From assembly GCA_023061495.1 (NCBI GenBank), contig GCA_023061495.1_3643.1: a stretch of 64,000 nucleotides of DNA; one strand, written 5' to 3'. A program made the position numbers and the translations under genes. Below, piece after piece: positions 5,765 to 27,606 of the stretch (within the stretch, counting starts at the first letter, position 1; each line of letters starts with the position of its first letter). A model generated the notes under the pieces. It ran no database searches. It worked only from the letters and a program-made list of their open reading frames with translations, and was not told the origin of the DNA. This stretch comes from Escherichia coli. Its GTDB lineage: Bacteria > Pseudomonadota > Gammaproteobacteria > Enterobacterales > Enterobacteriaceae.

Positions 5765-6019
5765 ATGCAAATCACTTTGAAGCCAGAATGCGTTGCAAAT
5801 GACCGAGCTTTTAAAGATTGCACAATCGGTGCAATTTATGAAGCAGAGTTTTGTGAGAATCCTCTGGTAAAAGCCCTTCTGGAAGAAGGGGCACCTTTAT
5901 CACAAGAAGAACTTGATGAGTTGGAAAACTCAGCCCAATGTCTTACCTTTAAAGATGATGAAGGAGACTCTGTCTGGTGCACTGTTAATGAAGTCGTTTT
6001 TGTAAAACCTGAACATTAA
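5765..6019 (+). CDS. Hypothetical small protein (paralog of 6083-6355)
   Basis: RBS GAGGAG upstream of ATG; RAFKDCT...KDDEGDSVWCT matches neighbour. Confidence 0.55.
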   Translation: MQITLKPECVANDRAFKDCTIGAIYEAEFCENPLVKALLEEGAPLSQEELDELENSAQCLTFKDDEGDSVWCTVNEVVFVKPEH

Positions 6020-6082: not shown

Positions 6083-6355
6083 ATGACCAAACAATACCAA
6101 CGAATTAAAGCCAAGGTTAAGCCAGACTATCTGGAGAAGGACTCTGCTTTTCGGGACTGCACAGCTGACAAAGTTTACACAGGGGCCGTCCTGTTGAACG
6201 ATGAACTTGAAGTAGATATTCTGGGTAAAGAGGCCACTATTAAGGACGACCAAGGCGATTATGTTTGCTGCACCACACGTGAGCTAGAAATCTTAGAATA
6301 CTTCGGTGAAATCTTCACCTCTCTTGATGATTACTTAGACGACGAGGAAGCTTAA
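6083..6355 (+). CDS. Hypothetical small protein (paralog of 5765-6019)
   Basis: ATG 6083 after AAAGGGGA; SAFRDCT...KDDQGDYVCCT. Confidence 0.5.
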   Translation: MTKQYQRIKAKVKPDYLEKDSAFRDCTADKVYTGAVLLNDELEVDILGKEATIKDDQGDYVCCTTRELEILEYFGEIFTSLDDYLDDEEA

Positions 6356-22497: not shown

Positions 22498-22540
22498 GGG
22501 TGGCACCTGGCGACGGGGGGAGACAATCACCGGTGGTGCC
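22498..22540 (-). repeat. Inverted copy of the GC-rich CCGGTGATTGTCTCCC element
   Basis: Reverse complement reads GGCACCACCGGTGATTGTCTCCCCCCGTCGCCAGGTGCC, close to the 14525-14566 copy. Confidence 0.45.
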
Positions 22541-22566
22541 TGTTATATAAAAAACTATAAAAACCG

Positions 22567-22595
22567 TTGACATCTGCCAGGTGGTGGGGTAACAT
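22567..22595 (+). promoter_or_regulatory. Sigma70-like promoter (TTGACA-17-TAACAT) followed by leader hairpin GGGCA-AAAG-TGCCC
   Basis: Hexamers upstream of gene 22650. Confidence 0.5.
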
Positions 22596-22649
22596 TTATC
22601 TTGAAGGGGCAAAAGTGCCCACACAACAACCAGAAGAGAGGAAAACGCC

Positions 22650-22922
22650 GTGTCAAGCTGGATTAACCAAGAAGTCGAATCACGTTTTAATGCTATTTGG
22701 GATCTCATCGAAAAAGAGGACGGAACATCAAGCCCCTACCTTAATAATCTTGAATTCCATTTTGTGGAAGCGATGAACGCAGAACATGATCACGAAGGCG
22801 GCGCGGATGAGTTCGCTAAAGGGTATGGCTTCAACAATGCCAACGAAATGATCGAGGCGGTTGTACTCCAGGCTGAGGAAGATTATCAATTAAAAACACT
22901 TGAATTTTGCCGCCGTAAGTAA
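22650..22922 (+). CDS. Hypothetical acidic protein (GTG start)
   Basis: RBS AGAGAGGAAAACGCC-GTG; ORF track. Confidence 0.5.
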   Translation: MSSWINQEVESRFNAIWDLIEKEDGTSSPYLNNLEFHFVEAMNAEHDHEGGADEFAKGYGFNNANEMIEAVVLQAEEDYQLKTLEFCRRK

Positions 22923-22983
22923 TAAGATAATGACACGGGCCAAAAGGCCAACCAAACCAGAACCCCATAAAGAGGTAAACATC

Positions 22984-23247
22984 ATGAAACGTCTTGATCA
23001 GCTCAAACTAGTTCAGTACATGGCCTACAAAGTTCTTGAAGTTCAAAAAGGTAGCAAAAAAGAGGTTTGCGAGAAAGCATATAAGATCTTTACCCGTAAA
23101 AAAGATGATTGGATGTTACGCCAGACCAAAAAGGCGGACATCTTGGGGTACCTGGAAGAAGAGATCCGGCTTGAAGAACAAGAAGAGATCCGCCGCAGTG
23201 AGGCAGATTATCAGGCAGCTTGGGAAAACTGGATGAGCAACAAATAA
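22984..23247 (+). CDS. Hypothetical small charged protein
   Basis: ATG 22984 after AAAGAGGTAAACATC; leader hairpin GGCC-AAAA-GGCC. Confidence 0.55.
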   Translation: MKRLDQLKLVQYMAYKVLEVQKGSKKEVCEKAYKIFTRKKDDWMLRQTKKADILGYLEEEIRLEEQEEIRRSEADYQAAWENWMSNK

Positions 23248-23314
23248 TACAACAAGTTACGGTCAGGGGGGGTAATAAAGCCCCTTGATCACATAAAAAT
23301 TATGCTATCCCTGG

Positions 23315-23343
23315 TTGACAGGGATCGGCAGTTTTGCTATATT
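23315..23343 (+). promoter_or_regulatory. Sigma70-like promoter (TTGACA-17-TATATT)
   Basis: Hexamers upstream of gene 23393. Confidence 0.55.
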
Positions 23344-23392
23344 CTTTTTTGAAGGGAAGTTGTAAGAAAATTAACTAAGAGGTAAAAACACC

Positions 23393-23812
23393 ATGAACAT
23401 TAAATCTAATAATCCGGCATATAGCTTTGATAACGCTTTTTGTCACGGTCCGGCGGCGAAAGGATTCGAAATCGATGGTAAACTAATTATTGTCAATGTT
23501 GACGGGGAAGAGGTTGCAGTATATCCGGTGGCAGACGTTAAAAGCCGTCTACAATGCCGCATCGATGTTACCGCCTATCAGCTTGATCCGGTCCGCATAG
23601 TTGCCCTGGTCCTGGAAGAAGAAATTAAAGCAATGCACCACAGCAACAAGTTTATTGGTGACGCTCAAGATAATATGAAGGTATGCCGCCATAAAGTTAA
23701 TGAAGTGCTTAAAGAGTACGGTTATAAAGATCTGATGATCAAACGTGAGGAAAAATTCCGCTACCGTAACGACCTAGCAAATCGGATTTTTGAAATATAC
23801 GAATCATTATAA
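23393..23812 (+). CDS. Hypothetical protein
   Basis: RBS AAGAGGTAAAAACACC-ATG; ORF track. Confidence 0.6.
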   Translation: MNIKSNNPAYSFDNAFCHGPAAKGFEIDGKLIIVNVDGEEVAVYPVADVKSRLQCRIDVTAYQLDPVRIVALVLEEEIKAMHHSNKFIGDAQDNMKVCRHKVNEVLKEYGYKDLMIKREEKFRYRNDLANRIFEIYESL

Positions 23813-26410
23813 TTTTTTAACTGAATTATCAAGGGGCTTAGGCCTGTCTGCTCTTCCCCCTACCATAAACGGCCCTACCTGGCAAGTGGAATAATTGACG
23901 GGCCATCAATCCAGCACACTGTACAAATATACATATAAAAATAACTATTGCATAATCTTTCATCTTGTGGTAGCAGGGCCATTTTTACACGTTTTTCCTT
24001 CCAAAAATGCACGTAATGCAACTATTGCACAAAATTTAACCTGATACACATCTTCAGTATACTGTCAACAATTAAAAACACTTATAAGTCATACACTTAC
24101 ACCACCACAAAAGCGTGTCCTACGTGAAAAATCGGGTGTAACTATAGCCGCCAGATCTCAGAATTCACGTACGCACATCATTCTATAGCCTGCAAAGTAT
24201 TTATTCCAACCACAGAATAACGGAATAGTCAATACCTGTACAAAATAATTATTCGTACAAACTGCATAACATAAACCTGCCCAGGTGTCAACATTTTTCG
24301 TAAACAGTCCTAAATTGTCACGATAGGTTACTATAATCAGAGAAATCTTTAGTCGTCTAATGTTTACTGCACATAACTATACTGATTGGAATCATTAGAT
24401 GACTAAGAGAAAGATAAGAAATAGTTAACAATGTAATTGTTTTACCTGTAACAATAAGGCAACTATGCAAACGAATGCCATGGCGCGACGGAGTCGCGAC
24501 ATAATATAAAAGCAGTAACAATCACCCCCGTGATAGTTTGTCTGCAATCTATTAGTCAGATCATAGTTGCCTTGTATTCAGTTAATCATGACATAATAAG
24601 CAAGGCAACTATAGATCTGCTAATAGTTGCCCTGCTTTTATATTATGTCATAGAAACGCCCGAAGGGGTGACCTAGCCACCTGGCATAGCCAGCGAAAGA
24701 TTATTAGCTTGCTAGTTGTAAGCTTGTTGGCTGTTAGCTTGTCAATTGTTAACTTGCTAATTGTTAAACTCGGGAGCATAGCCCTCGTCTCAAGGGTGTT
24801 TTCATGCAAACGAATGTCATGGCTTATCATCTCTGTGTAAACAGTTTGGGCGTAAACAGTCTATGCGTAAATAGTGAGATATGGAATAGTAACAGCCGTT
24901 ATTGTGTCATATTGTGTGACATTGTGTCAAAGGTAAAAGTGTCAAAAGTGACAAAAGTGTATAAGGTGTCAGACAAGTTTTTCTCCTCTTTGTCAAGTGC
25001 TGCATGGAAAATTTACAAACTGGTATGGTAGCATTTTTGCGGCCCTGTTTACATTCAGGAGTGTATGTATAATCCTTGTGGTGTGGGCGTTTAGACGTCT
25101 AGACGGTCAGAAGTCCGCAGGTTAATAACTAATCTATTGGTTGTTAACTATATCCCCCACAAATAATAAGAAATGCAATTGTTATATGCGTAAACAGTAA
25201 CTCATGTTATCAATCCATGTATGTATCGCCAGTGGTGCGCATAATGGGTATTATGTTAAATTGCCCGTAATGATAACGATTCTCACAATGATAAGTATTC
25301 TCATTCGCCCACACAAAATAGCTTGCAAATGTTGTGCCACTGTGTGAACGGCCTCGCCTATTAATTTGCCTCACTGCCCCGATATTTGAGAATTGTTATA
25401 AGAATGAGAAGTATTCCCATTTCGTCCGCCTGGCAGCGCTCCTGTAGGTCAGGTCAAAATCGTGGCAGAACTGGACCCCCCTTCAGATATTTCTGGCTGA
25501 CTCTTCAGGTCTGTGTGGGAAAAGCCAACCTCTCCGGCGGGGCAGGGGGTCTGCAGGAAAAAAATTGCAGGTCAATTAAAAAATTTACGTGGTGTATGAA
25601 GCGCTCTTCAGGTAAGGCAGGTATTATGGGATGAAACCCTCTTCAGGCAATGATATTTGTGGGTGTGATATTTGCTGGAAAGCCAGATATGACGGGACTC
25701 CCGGCGGGGCAGGGGTAGTACAGGCAGGGAAAATGTGGAGAATGTGGTGGGTAAATTGATCAGGCAGGTAGAGTATGGAATATGTTACAGGTATGTTAAA
25801 TATGGAGGTAAGATATTTGTAAGATTTGTGTGTAAAATCAAAGACTTAAGTGGTGTTGTGGTATTTTCTATAAATAATTCAAGTTTAATAGGTAATATTT
25901 GTCTCTATCCACTTTGTGTGGTAACCAGATTCAGATGAAATTGGTTTACAAGTGTATACATAATATACAAATTAAAGATACAAGAAACCCCCCTCCCCCT
26001 TCGGCTACCATTCACCTTTTCCTCTGACTGGTACTTAAACACTTATTCAGACTCTTCAGGTTATCACCCATATACCATATGGCAGTGACTGGTGTCCTCC
26101 GGCCCCTCTTTCGTCACCCGTCCGCTTCGCCATGCTAATGCCATAGCTAACTGTTCGGTTGTTCACCCTGTTCACTCAGGTGTATCTCCATACCCCTTCA
26201 AACCGAAGAGAACAGAAAACCCGAATTACTCGGTAAAAGAAAAGAGAAGAACTTAATTTTATCAGGATAGGCAAGAATGTCAAGGAATGACTGCTCACTA
26301 AACAAGCAAACAGTCATGTGTGGGAGGTAAGTGATTGTGGTGGTAGGAAATTTAGTTGAAAGATGTGTTATAGGTGCTTCCAGCACTTTAGCCGGGCAGC
26401 TAATTGTGTG
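23813..26410. other. 2.6-kb repeat-dense non-coding region at the convergence of + and - strand transcription units
   Basis: No convincing ORF with RBS; multiple families of 10-16 bp tandem or dispersed repeats and palindromes. Confidence 0.6.
24465..24823. repeat. Nested palindrome/iteron unit flanked by 20-bp direct repeats (ATGCAAACGAATG(C/T)CATGGC at 24465-24484 and 24804-24823)
   Basis: 18-bp perfect inverted repeat GACATAATATAAAAGCAG (24498-24515 / 24632-24649); 12-bp inverted repeat ATAGTTGCCTTG/CAAGGCAACTAT (24562-24573 / 24601-24612); three 15-bp AGCTTGT..ATTGTT-type units 24721-24766. Confidence 0.55.
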
Positions 26411-26626
26411 TCAGTCCAGCGGTTCATCCTCTACTTCACTGAAATCAATGTTCATGGTCTCTTCCCAGCCATCGATCTCAGCACAAGAGTGGAGTTCTTT
26501 AGGGTTTACTCCCAAAGCCTCAGCAACAGAGTCCATATTTAACACCTCTGGCAGATAAGATTCATCAAATTCAAGGTAAATCAGGCCACGAGTGTTGTTA
26601 GCTCCACCAAATATTTCTATTTTCAT
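26411..26626 (-). CDS. Hypothetical small acidic protein (MKIE... family)
   Basis: ORF track; N-terminus MKIEIF and acidic C-terminus like neighbouring paralogs. Confidence 0.5.
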   Translation of the reverse strand: MKIEIFGGANNTRGLIYLEFDESYLPEVLNMDSVAEALGVNPKELHSCAEIDGWEETMNIDFSEVEDEPLD

Positions 26627-26745
26627 GAAATCTCCTCTGGAAATGAGAGTGTGAACAGGGTTATACGTTCCAATGCGCAGGAATTATGCTCGTTTGCCTC
26701 TTCAGGCCATGCTTTAGCATGATAAACTTATGTGGGCTCGGTGCT

Positions 26746-27135
26746 TCATAGTCTCCCACCCCTGAACTCTTCGTGCTCAGGCATGATAGAGAACCAGATG
26801 TATACGATGTCCTCCCACGTCAGGTCATCAGCCTCAGGATCCACCTGAGACGAAGATAAAGAATCCTCAGAATTGAAGTTTTCCTCTGTAGTCACTTCTT
26901 CAGATGACTCTTTAGGTGCATGTGTGTTGGTCATGTTCCACCCGTTAGTATTCCGGCAACAGCTGCTATGGACGTAATGATCATCAGGATCACCACTAAA
27001 ACCTCGGATAATGTTTTCATTGCGTATTCCATATTCTCCAAACGATGTGAGGATACTATCACAGGAGCGGTAATGTGTCAACAGAAACGCCGCGAGGGTT
27101 TGGTTAAAATCCGAGCGTATGGTGATTTGGGTCAA
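26746..27135 (-). CDS. Hypothetical acidic protein
   Basis: ORF track; start uncertain. Confidence 0.4.
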   Translation of the reverse strand: MTQITIRSDFNQTLAAFLLTHYRSCDSILTSFGEYGIRNENIIRGFSGDPDDHYVHSSCCRNTNGWNMTNTHAPKESSEEVTTEENFNSEDSLSSSQVDPEADDLTWEDIVYIWFSIMPEHEEFRGGRL

Positions 27136-27294
27136 AACGGACGTGCGTTCTCGCTACGCTCGAAATAGAGAGTTGTTTGTAAGCGGCTCTTAAACGCTCT
27201 GTAGTGAGATTATTCATCTAAGGTATGCAATCGTGCACCAGATAAAGAAAAGGACGCCACAGAGCGTCCTAGGTGCCTTAAATTTGATATTTTG

Positions 27295-27606
27295 CTATAC
27301 CCATGAGGGCTTGTCCAGATTGGAGTAGCTGAAAGGGGTCAAAAGGTGATTGTCAAAATCTTTCAAACTATCCAAATCTTTTTCCTCGTCCTGACACCAT
27401 CTGTGCCTACATTTATTGTTGTAGTGCATAGAATGCATAGCGTTCTGCAACTTAACAGGCACAAGTGATTCAGGAGTAGATAGTATTGTCGGGTATGCCA
27501 GAACCACCTCAAACAGTGGAAACACATCGAAACTAAAGTCTACCTCTGCAGAGGTTGATGGCATATAGGAGTATTTAGCCGCCCTTGTAGACATAATCCA
27601 CCTCAC
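27295..27606 (-). CDS. Hypothetical protein
   Basis: ORF track; start uncertain. Confidence 0.4.
   Translation of the reverse strand: MRWIMSTRAAKYSYMPSTSAEVDFSFDVFPLFEVVLAYPTILSTPESLVPVKLQNAMHSMHYNNKCRHRWCQDEEKDLDSLKDFDNHLLTPFSYSNLDKPSWV

Follow-up and report, generated by a model that had tools for sequence, protein, structure and literature searches.

A conserved, single-copy nested palindrome in the gene-free hub of Vequintavirinae phages

Among the described systems closest to the element reported here are replication origins. The HSV origins oriL and oriS and the iteron plasmids pSC101 and R6K share with it a long imperfect palindrome with an AT-rich center, and a motif that is inverted on the two arms and repeated in direct, phased copies nearby; the HSV origins are, in addition, individually dispensable when redundant and prone to deletion, as is the case here. 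It differs from these origins in having no initiator gene or known origin-binding protein and no DnaA or IHF sites associated with it, in lying where transcription and GC skew converge, and in an interior that is far more branched, and it is known from its sequence. Single-strand initiation signals, the ssoA and ssoU origins of rolling-circle plasmids and the minus-strand origins of M13 and G4 resemble it as non-coding imperfect palindromes of 150-250 nt with a fixed orientation. These origins work as folded single-stranded DNA, are dispensable with a quantitative phenotype only, and diverge in sequence while the fold is kept. However, those replicons pass through a single-stranded stage, whereas the present element is carried by a 137-kb double-stranded myovirus with a gp4-like primase-helicase, and the conserved motifs RSB and CS-6 are not evident in it.

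Bidirectional terminators and REP/BIME sequences are similar to it in their position between convergent units, in having A-rich 5' and U-rich 3' arms, in GC-rich modules that are gained and lost, and in that one inner hairpin with its T-tract has the canonical terminator shape. Unlike them, its basal stem encloses 63-210 nt rather than a short loop, several genera have no U-tract, it is a single copy and not a dispersed family, and the last gene has a terminator of its own 690 bp before it. The RNase III hairpins of the T7 early mRNA are likewise long, near-perfect duplexes with internal asymmetric loops in intergenic positions of a lytic coliphage, but they are ~60 nt long and lie within one operon, whereas here G.U pairs are almost absent and the element is known as DNA. 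MITEs and foldback elements also have a short non-coding interior between perfect terminal inverted repeats, and direct repeats nearby; in contrast, the present element is a single syntenic copy with no adjoining target duplication, no copies in hosts or at other loci and no transposase.

The window, which is the whole 64-kb stretch (64,000 nt) that was analyzed, is from a Vequintavirus (rV5-like, ~137 kb). Its + strand genes stop at 23812 and its - strand genes start at 26411-26626, and between these convergent gene blocks is an ORF-free, non-coding hub of ~2.6 kb (23813..26410), inside which the maximum of the cumulative GC skew falls. No CDS is annotated in the hub of relatives, and it corresponds to the "non-coding" box of the rV5 map (PMC3606486), a gene-free region of 2-2.6 kb that has been drawn empty since 2013. 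The gene-164 terminator is degenerate in the window, so that read-through is possible. No tRNAs or known RNA families were found, there being no Rfam match at E<=1 in positions 22500-27500 of the window or in the PVP-SE1, Av-05 and A7_1 loci, and neither side of the element has a conserved sigma-70 promoter. The 2.6 kb of the hub contain one DnaA-like 9-mer and one IHF-like site, neither near the element and without any cluster; the hub has no excess of GATC sites, and there is no AT-rich unwinding element, the AT-rich center of the palindrome being only ~25 bp. No initiator gene adjoins the element, no recombinase or invertase was seen near it, the neighboring small proteins have no Pfam domain, and we found no description of the nested palindrome in the literature.

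An earlier, sequence-only reading of this locus had named direct repeats, an 18-bp inverted repeat, inner repeats and a 15-mer array, all of which are present at the coordinates given, although it had not recognized that the inverted repeats are parts of one hairpin or that three further arrays follow to the right. The 18-bp inverted repeat is the foot of a single interrupted palindrome of 152 bp (24498-24649). The left (forward) arm of the basal stem, GACATAATATAAAAGCAG (24498..24515, + strand), is matched by a right (reverse) arm (24632..24649, - strand) that is its exact complement (18/18), and there are no other copies of this repeat in the window. A conserved asymmetric box leads into the arm tip, TGGCGCGA-CGGAGTC-GCGACAT-A-ATA (24481..24506, + strand), and contains a mini-hairpin, CGCGAC-GGA-GTCGCG (24484-24498). 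The left half of the palindrome has an asymmetric insert with the side hairpin ATCAC-CCCC-GTGAT (24521..24534, + strand), a C-rich tract after the forward arm being found in most genera. Further in is an inner imperfect palindrome with a ~35-bp stem (24544..24630; stems 24544-24580 and 24594-24630, apical loop 24581-24593), in which GATC at 24559 and 24614 is placed symmetrically. Two inner repeats are built on GGCAACTAT, one of 12 bp (I13, 24563-74 / 24601-12) and one of 15 nt (I5, 24598-612 / 24623-37); four of the five window copies of GGCAACTAT fall at 24458-24631, within 175 bp (0.4 expected), three of them in the inner palindrome at 24563(-), 24604(+) and 24623(-) and one outside it at 24458(+). 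An alternative local hairpin, 24598-24612 / 24623-24637 followed by TTTTATATTAT (24598..24648, + strand), has the look of an intrinsic terminator and carries a "terminator" annotation in phage Murica. The folding z-scores of 24498-24649 were -10.6 for the + strand RNA, -9.8 for the - strand RNA and -9.5 for single-stranded DNA.

To the right of the palindrome is a module of small GC-rich hairpins (24652..24703, + strand; CGCCC-GAAG-GGGTG, GGTGAC-CTA-GCCACC and CTGGC-ATA-GCCAG), which is missing in about half of the relatives. It is followed by a 15-bp tandem array of TTARCTTGYTAATTG (24700..24766, + strand; period 15 and 4.5 copies by Tandem Repeats Finder, 0-5 in relatives), a terminator-like hairpin module, AAACTCGGGAGCATAGCCCTCGTCTCAAGGGTGTTTTC (24766..24803, + strand), and a second 15-bp tandem array, GTRAACAGT (24837..24875, + strand), which has 2.6 copies here, up to ~10 in relatives, and is lost in V18. 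The last arrays (24900..24971, - strand), of 10 bp (TATTGTGTCA x3, 24900-24929) and 9 bp (AAAGTGTCA x5.7, 24924-24971), supply extra reverse-oriented copies of the arm tip GACAYWAT. This motif occurs as an inverted pair at the palindrome foot and as 10-bp-phased copies ~250 bp downstream; five of its ten window copies, including a 10-bp-phased triplet, are within 24498-24921 (0.4 expected). As read from the sequences, most of the small hairpins have 3-nt loops, and none has a GNRA or UNCG loop. Bracketing the locus are the direct repeats, copy 1, ATGCAAACGAATGCCATGGC (24465..24484, + strand), the last 4 bases of which are inside the conserved box, and copy 2, ATGCAAACGAATGTCATGGC (24804..24823, + strand). 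The two are identical at 19/20 positions and are the sole two matches in the 64 kb with <=3 mismatches (0.01 expected); copy 1 is kept in all members of the genus and missing in other genera. The earlier description of a symmetric, foldback-capable, non-coding cis element with short repeated motifs of the kind bound by proteins is borne out.

Within the genus, the core of the palindrome is near-invariant across 21 members, while the tandem arrays on the right are free in copy number. Mean pairwise identity is 0.97-1.00 in the 24480-24640 bins, ~0.90-0.95 in the bins flanking the core and 0.10-0.59 in the arrays rightward, and the left arm of the basal stem is invariant in 22 sequences. In the genus alignment, insertions are tolerated in the apical loop only: in rV5, phita32, C7 and A135 a 33-nt module, the same as the hairpin module at 24766..24803, is inserted exactly there. 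In a metagenomic Vequintavirus contig (L024), an additional T pairs with the bulged A24613. Stem transitions within the genus yield G.T and A.C about equally, with no strand bias for wobble pairs, and two wobble-preserving changes on the + strand were seen in the CACCC-GAAG-GGGTG hairpin.

Among the 60 of 120 matching records that were listed, the element is lost only in phage FV3, which lacks precisely the DNA between the two 20-bp direct repeats and retains one repeat copy. FV3 groups within the carriers, one of which is a second isolate of the same species, and since the flanks in FV3 are 97% identical to those of same-species carriers, its "empty" state is, on this comparison, a derived repeat-to-repeat deletion in which copy 2 was the partner of copy 1. 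The direct repeats are a genus-specific secondary duplication, and their sole demonstrated effect is to permit the precise loss of the element. The sequence-only reading had counted absence from close relatives, along with a lack of protein binding, against its own interpretation; the first half of this was found, in that FV3 is a viable close relative without the element. It follows that the element is dispensable and that its function is either non-essential or redundant.

Seunavirus, Avunavirus and unclassified Vequintavirinae each carry a homologous nested palindrome, with one copy per genome and no change of gap or orientation; A7_1/LTH01, Av-05/TH18 and PVP-SE1/EspYZU15 have it in this convergent ORF-free gap. 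The shared box, TGGCGCGA..GCGACAY..ATA, which is common to Seunavirus, Avunavirus and the A7_1-type phages, is present exactly once per hub in 42/54 loci, and the window has no second copy of it (0 expected). The hub DNA surrounding it gave no significant alignment with that of A7_1, and the score of a local alignment of the window's box to those of other genera is not significant alone; the best local-alignment match of the box is nonetheless the right site in Av-05, TH18 and PVP-SE1. Based on the short motif and its position, the Vequintavirus box is probably homologous to that of the other genera. The arms vary by lineage (AAAAGCAG, AAAACGAG, AACACGAG, AACGCAG), yet both arms of each element still match, with pure Watson-Crick pairing over 16-18 bp in every lineage, the sole G.T being the 19th and innermost pair of the Seunavirus basal stem. 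In six Seunavirus-type sequences, 10/67 pairs have changed on both sides, four of them in the basal stem, and the variable positions include zero one-sided or broken pairs. These comparisons suggest that it is the structure, and not the sequence, that is conserved. Across genera, inverted repeats of 16-21 bp enclose a segment of 63-210 bp, and the interiors, although wholly different, fold in every case into several hairpins whose stems are compensated. The other genera have one forward and one to four reverse arm copies; the reverse copies number two to four in Avunavirus, TH18 and PVP-SE1, where they are identical over 12-18 bp within a genome, and some of these (PVP-SE1, TH18, Av-05) come directly after small GC hairpins in the manner of a terminator tail. 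The asymmetric interior has one orientation in ~29 distinct genomes, with its C-rich side by the forward arm. Of ~1000 predicted pairs, 14 on the + strand and 24 on the - strand are G.U (2-5%). We describe the locus as a conserved, single-copy, structure-forming cis element of the Vequintavirinae hub, of which the Vequintavirus version was the one found here. In Phapecoctavirus (phAPEC8), a nested palindrome of similar architecture, without the conserved box, is situated downstream of a homologous 139-aa gene.

As to what the element does, we tentatively favor, at somewhat less than an even chance, a DNA-level hairpin or cruciform with iteron-like GACAY-WAT sites that has an accessory role in replication or recombination. 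The 152-bp palindrome would fold back when the duplex is unwound during replication or recombination, or is negatively supercoiled, giving a hairpin or cruciform with the perfect 18-bp stem as its foot. A phage-encoded, sequence-specific protein would bind the arm tip GACAY-WAT and may also bind the adjacent unique GC-rich box, TGGCGCGA..GCGAC, and the resulting complex would mark an accessory, redundant site for DNA transactions where two transcription units converge. The most plausible roles would be the initiation or priming of replication, or the processing of forks or recombination intermediates. The sequence-only reading had proposed an origin core or a binding site for a dimeric initiator or terminase; of these, a redundant origin or priming site is possible, and given the viability of FV3 any origin here must be redundant. 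As in iteron-type origins, one short motif is present in phased direct and inverted copies, whereas the AT-rich unwinding element, the DnaA/IHF sites and the neighboring initiator gene of such origins are absent. We found no replication mapping data for these phages in the literature. Several observations count against the DNA hairpin: no protein partner was found, and the neighboring small proteins have no Pfam domain; templated correction can by itself keep the arms perfectly complementary; the polarity of the hub, on which genes and GC skew converge, is like that of a terminus and not of an origin; positive supercoiling between convergent units would oppose cruciform extrusion; FV3 is viable without it; compensatory changes and small hairpins are equally expected of a structured RNA; and the reverse arm copies after small GC hairpins resemble terminator tails. 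It is also a possibility, albeit a rather doubtful one, that the element represents a new class of phage cis element, a protein-recognized DNA foldback with a GC-rich entry box and GTC-ending arm tips, on whose hairpin an accessory origin or priming site shared by the Vequintavirinae would depend, or else the first member of a new family of structured non-coding RNAs of large lytic coliphages. In connection with such priming, GTGTC and TGTC resemble the recognition sites of T7-type primases, and these phages encode a gp4-like primase-helicase.

The DNA hairpin has a close competitor in a structured RNA or terminator module, though we regard the latter as unlikely in itself. Transcribed by read-through from the converging units or from an unrecognized promoter, the palindrome would be a long multibranch hairpin. 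It would act as a 3'-end, terminator or processing element, for instance as a duplex of the RNase III type or a terminator working in both directions, or else it would be an accessory non-coding RNA. The degenerate gene-164 terminator permits read-through; the 24598-24637 hairpin followed by UUUUAUAUUAU has the canonical terminator shape, as annotated in Murica; and the A-rich 5' and U-rich 3' arms have the layout of a bidirectional terminator. On the + strand there is a short hairpin with a U-tract (24598-24637 and then TTTTAT), but not on the - strand, where the U-tract is 10 nt away from the nearest small hairpin. An RNA is also consistent with interiors that are replaced between genera and still form several hairpins with compensated stems, with the conserved asymmetric flank and C-rich tract, with the reverse arm copies after small GC hairpins in PVP-SE1, TH18 and Av-05, with the - strand fold, which is the more stable in 8/10 cases and has the more G.U pairs (24 versus 14), and with the two wobble-preserving + strand changes. 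Accessory RNAs are typically dispensable in the laboratory, as the element is in FV3, but conserved in nature. The covariation expected of a structured RNA was found (10/67 pairs changed on both sides, arms compensated between genera), but a DNA hairpin predicts the same signal. What argues against an RNA is that no conserved promoter exists on either side and no Rfam match at E<=1 was obtained in four hubs, that the basal stems of 16-18 bp are without G.U in any lineage and G.U is at 2-5% overall, that wobble-compatible substitutions have no strand bias within the genus, and that 3-nt loops prevail while stable RNA tetraloops are absent. Moreover, the basal stem has no following U-tract in Seunavirus and Avunavirus, and it is hard to see what the 10-bp-phased tandem arm-tip copies would do in an RNA. 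Because of the Watson-Crick arms, the rarity of G.U, the equal folding of both strands, the 3-nt loops, the about equal yield of G.T and A.C from stem transitions and the lack of promoter and Rfam matches, we tentatively favor DNA over RNA.

It is improbable that the locus is a functionless, palindrome-rich spacer, in which hairpins arise and perfect themselves by template switching and conservation reflects low divergence and mechanical self-correction. Templated "quasipalindrome correction" can keep arms complementary without selection for protein binding, and it yields perfect Watson-Crick arms such as those observed. The free gain and loss of arrays and hairpin modules, the presence of one 33-nt hairpin module at two different places in different phages, and the large losses tolerated by FV3 and V18 would all fit a spacer. 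However, the core is conserved above the flanking genes, and the box, orientation and position persist across genera despite surrounding hub DNA that gave no significant alignment (as seen with A7_1). Palindrome correction cannot maintain an asymmetric, unique box, and among the 60 of 120 matching records listed only FV3 has lost the element.

The sequence-only reading had also raised a small inserted or foldback mobile element bounded by direct repeats, and we reject this suggestion, which would make the locus a MITE-like element with 18-bp terminal inverted repeats and a 20-bp target duplication and which we judge very improbable. Its appeal is in the perfect terminal inverted repeats around a non-coding interior, the direct repeats at a distance, and the single repeat copy without an interior in FV3, which looks like an empty site. 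The ends of Tn7 and Mu are multi-site transposon ends, and one forward with several reverse arm-tip copies recalls them. Nevertheless, the element is present as one copy per genome at a constant syntenic site in four Vequintavirinae lineages, and searches of the rest of the window, of 5,426 E. coli genomes and, with the box pattern, of 185,579 bacterial and archaeal species genomes gave no further copies; the sole match in the plasmid collection is a mislabelled vequintavirus. The direct repeats do not abut the arms, from which 13 bp separate them on the left and 154 bp on the right, and because TGGC|GCGCGA is continuous in genera without the direct repeat, these repeats cannot be a target-site duplication. 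The empty state of FV3, given its flanks, is derived and not ancestral, and a transposase is absent. The element is thus a conserved, unexplained accessory element and not a jumping gene.

Equally improbable is an invertible DNA switch of the shufflon kind, in which a site-specific recombinase would invert the DNA that lies between the two 18-bp arms, or between the forward arm and one of several reverse copies. Perfect inverted repeats of 16-21 bp do flank a segment of 63-210 bp, and in some genera several reverse copies accompany the single forward one, but the interior had the same orientation in each of the ~29 distinct genomes examined, an invertase is neither known nor was it seen in the neighborhood, and a flip of the palindromic interior would alter little. 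The least credible explanation is a pac site or sole replication origin. The pac sites of P1 and SPP1 have phased short repeats flanking a special site, which the arrays here recall. Packaging is of the headful type with a permuted genome, and the pac site is unmapped (PMC3606486; PMC13211470). However, FV3 is a propagated isolate without the whole element, which makes an essential sole origin or pac site unlikely, the terminase genes are distant, lying in rV5 within the morphogenesis block (genes 27-81; PMC3606486), and the start points of records near the hub are scattered and do not coincide.

Several further candidates were considered and set aside. The direct repeats start with ATG and give ORFs of 14 codons (24465) and 75 codons (24804), but coding was ruled out: after copy 2, relatives have indels whose lengths are not divisible by three, most relatives lack a ribosome-binding site for copy 2, and the - strand ORF is not preserved in A7_1. 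A leader-peptide attenuator, suggested by four mutually exclusive GGCAACTAT segments and an Arg-rich mini-ORF, was set aside; the arrangement is missing in other genera and the sequence is invariant within the genus. The sequence GACACTATA in A7_1 and PVP-SE1 matches the core of an SP6 promoter; we treat this as a coincidence because the upstream half is mismatched, the motif is not kept in Vequintavirus, and the genome paper on rV5 has its genes transcribed from promoters of the host type. Eight other viral contigs have palindromes of the form GGCAACTAT-N(8-12)-ATAGTTGCC, but these hairpins are unrelated and about as many as estimated by hand for a pattern of such length, and a metagenome match (L048) is a GC-rich chance match.

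Phages of the rV5 type are isolated in many places and have found use in therapy and typing sets, and the box drawn as empty in their maps holds a discrete, structure-constrained element common to several genera, which offers a target for the mapping of replication, transcript ends or anti-defense functions. FV3 has lost the element naturally, and SYGMH1, which belongs to the same species and is near-isogenic, carries it; the two form a ready comparison pair. The palindrome and its hypervariable arrays may explain why the assemblies of several such phages break or open in or near the hub.

A 1.7-kb query around the element matched 120 phage records at 88–95% identity, essentially all of them Vequintavirus, the rV5-like myoviruses of ~137 kb. 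In annotated relatives ~2.5 kb without called genes surrounds the element, and in the window this non-coding hub lies between a left block of small genes on the + strand that ends at 23812 and a right gene block on the - strand that begins at 26411–26626. On the published rV5 map genes 163 and 164 flank a grey "non-coding" box that corresponds to this stretch, at which a change of skew was noted and no function was given; the same paper termed the genome circularly permuted, and its promoter and terminator table has no entry within the box, only t164, directly after gene 164 (PMC3606486). Headful packaging was inferred for the genus in a later paper (PMC13211470). Across the window, cumulative GC skew is maximal at ~25–26 kb because the converging gene blocks have opposite skew. 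The counterpart of t164 (in rV5, GGGGCTTTAAAAGGCCCCTTTCTTTT) is degenerate at 23840–23880 and was not picked up in the terminator scan. The window's phage may have more read-through into the hub. In the literature searched, the region features only as a non-coding box without explanation, and the element, its conserved box, their cross-genus conservation and a natural deletion in phage FV3 appear to be undescribed there.

The sequence-only reading had described a nested palindrome bounded by direct repeats. All of its repeats were found at the positions it gave, and are unique to the locus within the 64 kb, including the 20-bp direct repeats (24465–24484 and 24804–24823) and the 18-bp inverted pair (24498–24515 and 24632–24649). 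Folding showed, however, that the nested repeats are not separate but parts of one interrupted hairpin (24498–24649), with a perfect basal stem of 18 bp at its foot, an asymmetric insert of 27 nt on the left side that carries a small hairpin (ATCAC-CCCC-GTGAT), an imperfect inner stem of ~35 bp and an AT-rich apical loop of 13 nt. The folding z-score of the palindrome was ~ -10 on both strands, with RNA and DNA models alike. Segment 24598–24612 has alternative partners, 24563–74 leftward or 24623–37 rightward, and the rightward hairpin followed by TTTTAT is an annotated terminator in phage Murica. The palindrome is followed on its right by small GC-rich hairpin modules and by four tandem arrays whose periods are 15, 15, 10 and 9. 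A further imperfect inverted repeat, invariant in 22 genomes, sits ~100 bp left of the element at 24348–24407 (TTTAGTCGTCTAATG / CATTAGATGACTAA; 14-bp stem, one G.T pair, 24-nt loop).

When the homologous region of 20 GenBank phage records and two metagenomic viral contigs was aligned within the genus, the core (~24440–24651) was almost invariant, at a mean pairwise identity of 0.97–1.00 per 40-nt bin, compared to 0.90–0.95 in the non-coding and coding flanks. At 24640–24960, turnover of modules and array units by gain and loss lowered identity to 0.10–0.59. One hairpin module of 33–38 nt (TAAACTCRGG..CATAGCC..TCGTCTCRAGGRTGT) is at 24766–24803 in the window, before direct repeat 2, and its 33-nt form is exactly in the palindrome's apical loop in rV5, phita32, C7 and A135 (apical-loop copies in loci L007, L008, L011 and L017, at the equivalent of window 24593). 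In Vequintavirus genomes this module is a small cassette that duplicates or relocates. Both direct-repeat copies were present in all genomes examined apart from V18, which has lost ~24690–24925 including copy 2, and FV3, which has one copy and lacks precisely the inter-copy DNA, such that window segments 23825–24484 and 24804–26700 overlap on a common 20 bp of FV3. The FV3 flanks match both the window and SYGMH1, a phage of the same species as FV3 that carries the element, at ~97% identity, so that FV3 represents a recent repeat-to-repeat deletion and not an ancestral empty site. It follows from FV3 that propagation does not require the element.

Counterparts were found in other genera. Phapecoctavirus and unclassified Vequintavirinae encode homologues, at ~85–90% protein identity, of the 139-aa gene to the left of the hub. 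The gaps downstream of these homologues contain nested palindromes, even though blastn did not align them significantly to the hub of the window. In A7_1 (unclassified Vequintavirinae) the arms are GACACTATAAAACGAG / CTCGTTTTATAGTGTC, preceded by GGTGGCGCGACCGTAGGGAGC, the window equivalents being GACATAATATAAAAGCAG and CATGGCGCGACGGAGTCGC. With the A7_1 element as blastn query, the flank-plus-arm segment was detected at ~92% identity in Seunavirus (PVP-SE1 and many Salmonella and Cronobacter phages) and at 86–97% in Avunavirus (Av-05) and TH18; in all of these the element is ~450 bp past the last + strand gene, in an ORF-free gap of ~2 kb between convergent blocks. The box pattern TGGCGCGA-N4-10-GCGACAY-N0-2-ATA, is unique in the window, where chance would give none, and 42 of the 54 loci scanned have it exactly once; FV3 and the phAPEC8-type loci are among those in which it was not found. 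Plain local alignment of the window's box to other hubs did not give a significant score, and the best match was the correct site in Av-05, TH18 and PVP-SE1. Taking motif, position, orientation and architecture jointly, homology of the element across genera is probable.

Pairing is the conserved property of the element. Arm sequences vary by lineage, but within each element the arms are perfectly complementary over 16–18 bp, and the interiors, unalignable across genera, each refold into several hairpins. Among six Seunavirus-type sequences, 10 of 67 consensus pairs were changed on both sides. Four of the pairs so changed belong to the basal stem (AU/UA, GC/UA and, twice, AU/GC), and neither one-sided changes nor broken pairs were seen at variable positions. 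Within Vequintavirus, substitutions in predicted pairs gave G.T-type and A.C-type outcomes about equally, with no strand bias and one double compensatory change; in a metagenomic relative (L024) an additional T pairs with the otherwise bulged A24613. Five of the ten window copies of the arm tip, GACAY-WAT, are within 24498–24921, also outside the stem, and the copies include a 10-bp-phased array (TATTGTGTCA x3). In the genomes of Av-05, TH18 and PVP-SE1 the arm tip occurs once in forward and two to four times in reverse orientation, the copies within a genome having 12–18 bp in common.

We tentatively favor a DNA-level foldback with iteron-like sites, itself less likely than not, over a structured RNA or terminator module, which we consider only slightly less likely. 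The many small compensated hairpins, the terminator-shaped hairpin on the + strand, the A-rich and U-rich arms and the dispensability of the element in culture would suit an RNA, as would reverse arm copies that in some cases come after small GC hairpins and resemble terminator tails, and a - strand that is slightly more stable and has slightly more G.U pairs. On the side of DNA, no G.U pair occurs within the 16–18 bp of the arms in any lineage, such pairs are very few overall (14 and 24 among ~1000 pairs), and the two strands fold equally well. Loops of 3 nt predominate and none is of the GNRA or UNCG type, neither a conserved promoter nor an Rfam match was found, and the phased extra arm-tip copies resemble protein-binding sites.

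An essential pac site or sole origin is unlikely given that FV3 is viable without the element and that the locus has terminus-like polarity; host-factor sites and an initiator gene were not found at the locus. The reading as a mobile element with target duplication did not hold, as the palindrome occurs in single copy at a syntenic site, dispersed copies being absent, the direct repeats do not abut the arms, and TGGC|GCGCGA is continuous in genera without the repeat. An inverton was disfavored because orientation was the same in all genomes inspected, and the indel pattern excluded protein coding. Among known kinds, the element is reminiscent of palindromic origins whose two arms both carry sites, of single-strand initiation signals, and of palindromes of the terminator or REP-like type, but by their defining tests it does not fully qualify as any of them.

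Fur-box-like sequences recur in the hub of several genera: at 25266–25308 and 25387–25421 in the window (AATGATAACGATTCTCA and AATGATAAGTATTCTCA, each 14/19 to GATAATGATAATCATTATC), at 5925–5942 and 6104–6121 in phAPEC8 (L021), at ~2546–2566 in PVP-SE1 (L036) and at ~2610–2625 in EspYZU15 (L038). A 22-nt stretch is 95% identical between the window and phAPEC8, the hubs of which are otherwise unalignable. These sequences may represent either a promoter responsive to iron or a decoy for Fur, although part of the resemblance may be incidental because the equivalent hairpin differs in sequence in Seunavirus relatives. At 26000–26340 lies a second ultra-conserved non-coding block (pairwise identity 0.99–1.00 in 15 genomes), a possible small RNA gene. 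Its - strand carries the best sigma-70-like promoter in the hub (TTGACA at 26283, 16-nt spacer, TAAAAT ending at 26256; 11/12 matches, upstream TG), and the block has a small terminator-like hairpin at 26233–26221. Additional repeat families occupy the right half of the hub (25425–25724 and 25499–26061): CCGGCGGGGCAGGGG at 25534 and 25701 with a weaker copy at 25425, (G/C)(A/G)CTCTTCAGGT at 25499, 25602, 25637 and 26050, and CTCTTCAG, also present in the A7_1 hub (L022 6397 and 6742).

The arm tip GACACTATA of A7_1 (L022 5501–5509) and PVP-SE1 (L036 2521–2529) is the SP6 RNA polymerase promoter core, -9 to -1, and the A7_1 element contains TATCTGTT, the T7 class II termination signal; both likenesses were judged coincidence, as only host-type promoters are described in the rV5 genome paper (PMC3606486) and the motifs are not kept in the window. 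Among database records, the 137.5-kb "E. coli plasmid" CP057073.1 is a Vequintavirus genome, and eighteen "Campylobacter phage" records (MG0656xx) are E. coli-type Vequintavirus genomes, those inspected being marked UNVERIFIED. The hub of phage EC22.5-2 was deposited as separate contigs of 1.4 kb and 2.1 kb (OR845197/OR845217), and several complete genomes were opened within or beside the hub, as would be consistent with difficulties in assembling the palindrome and arrays.
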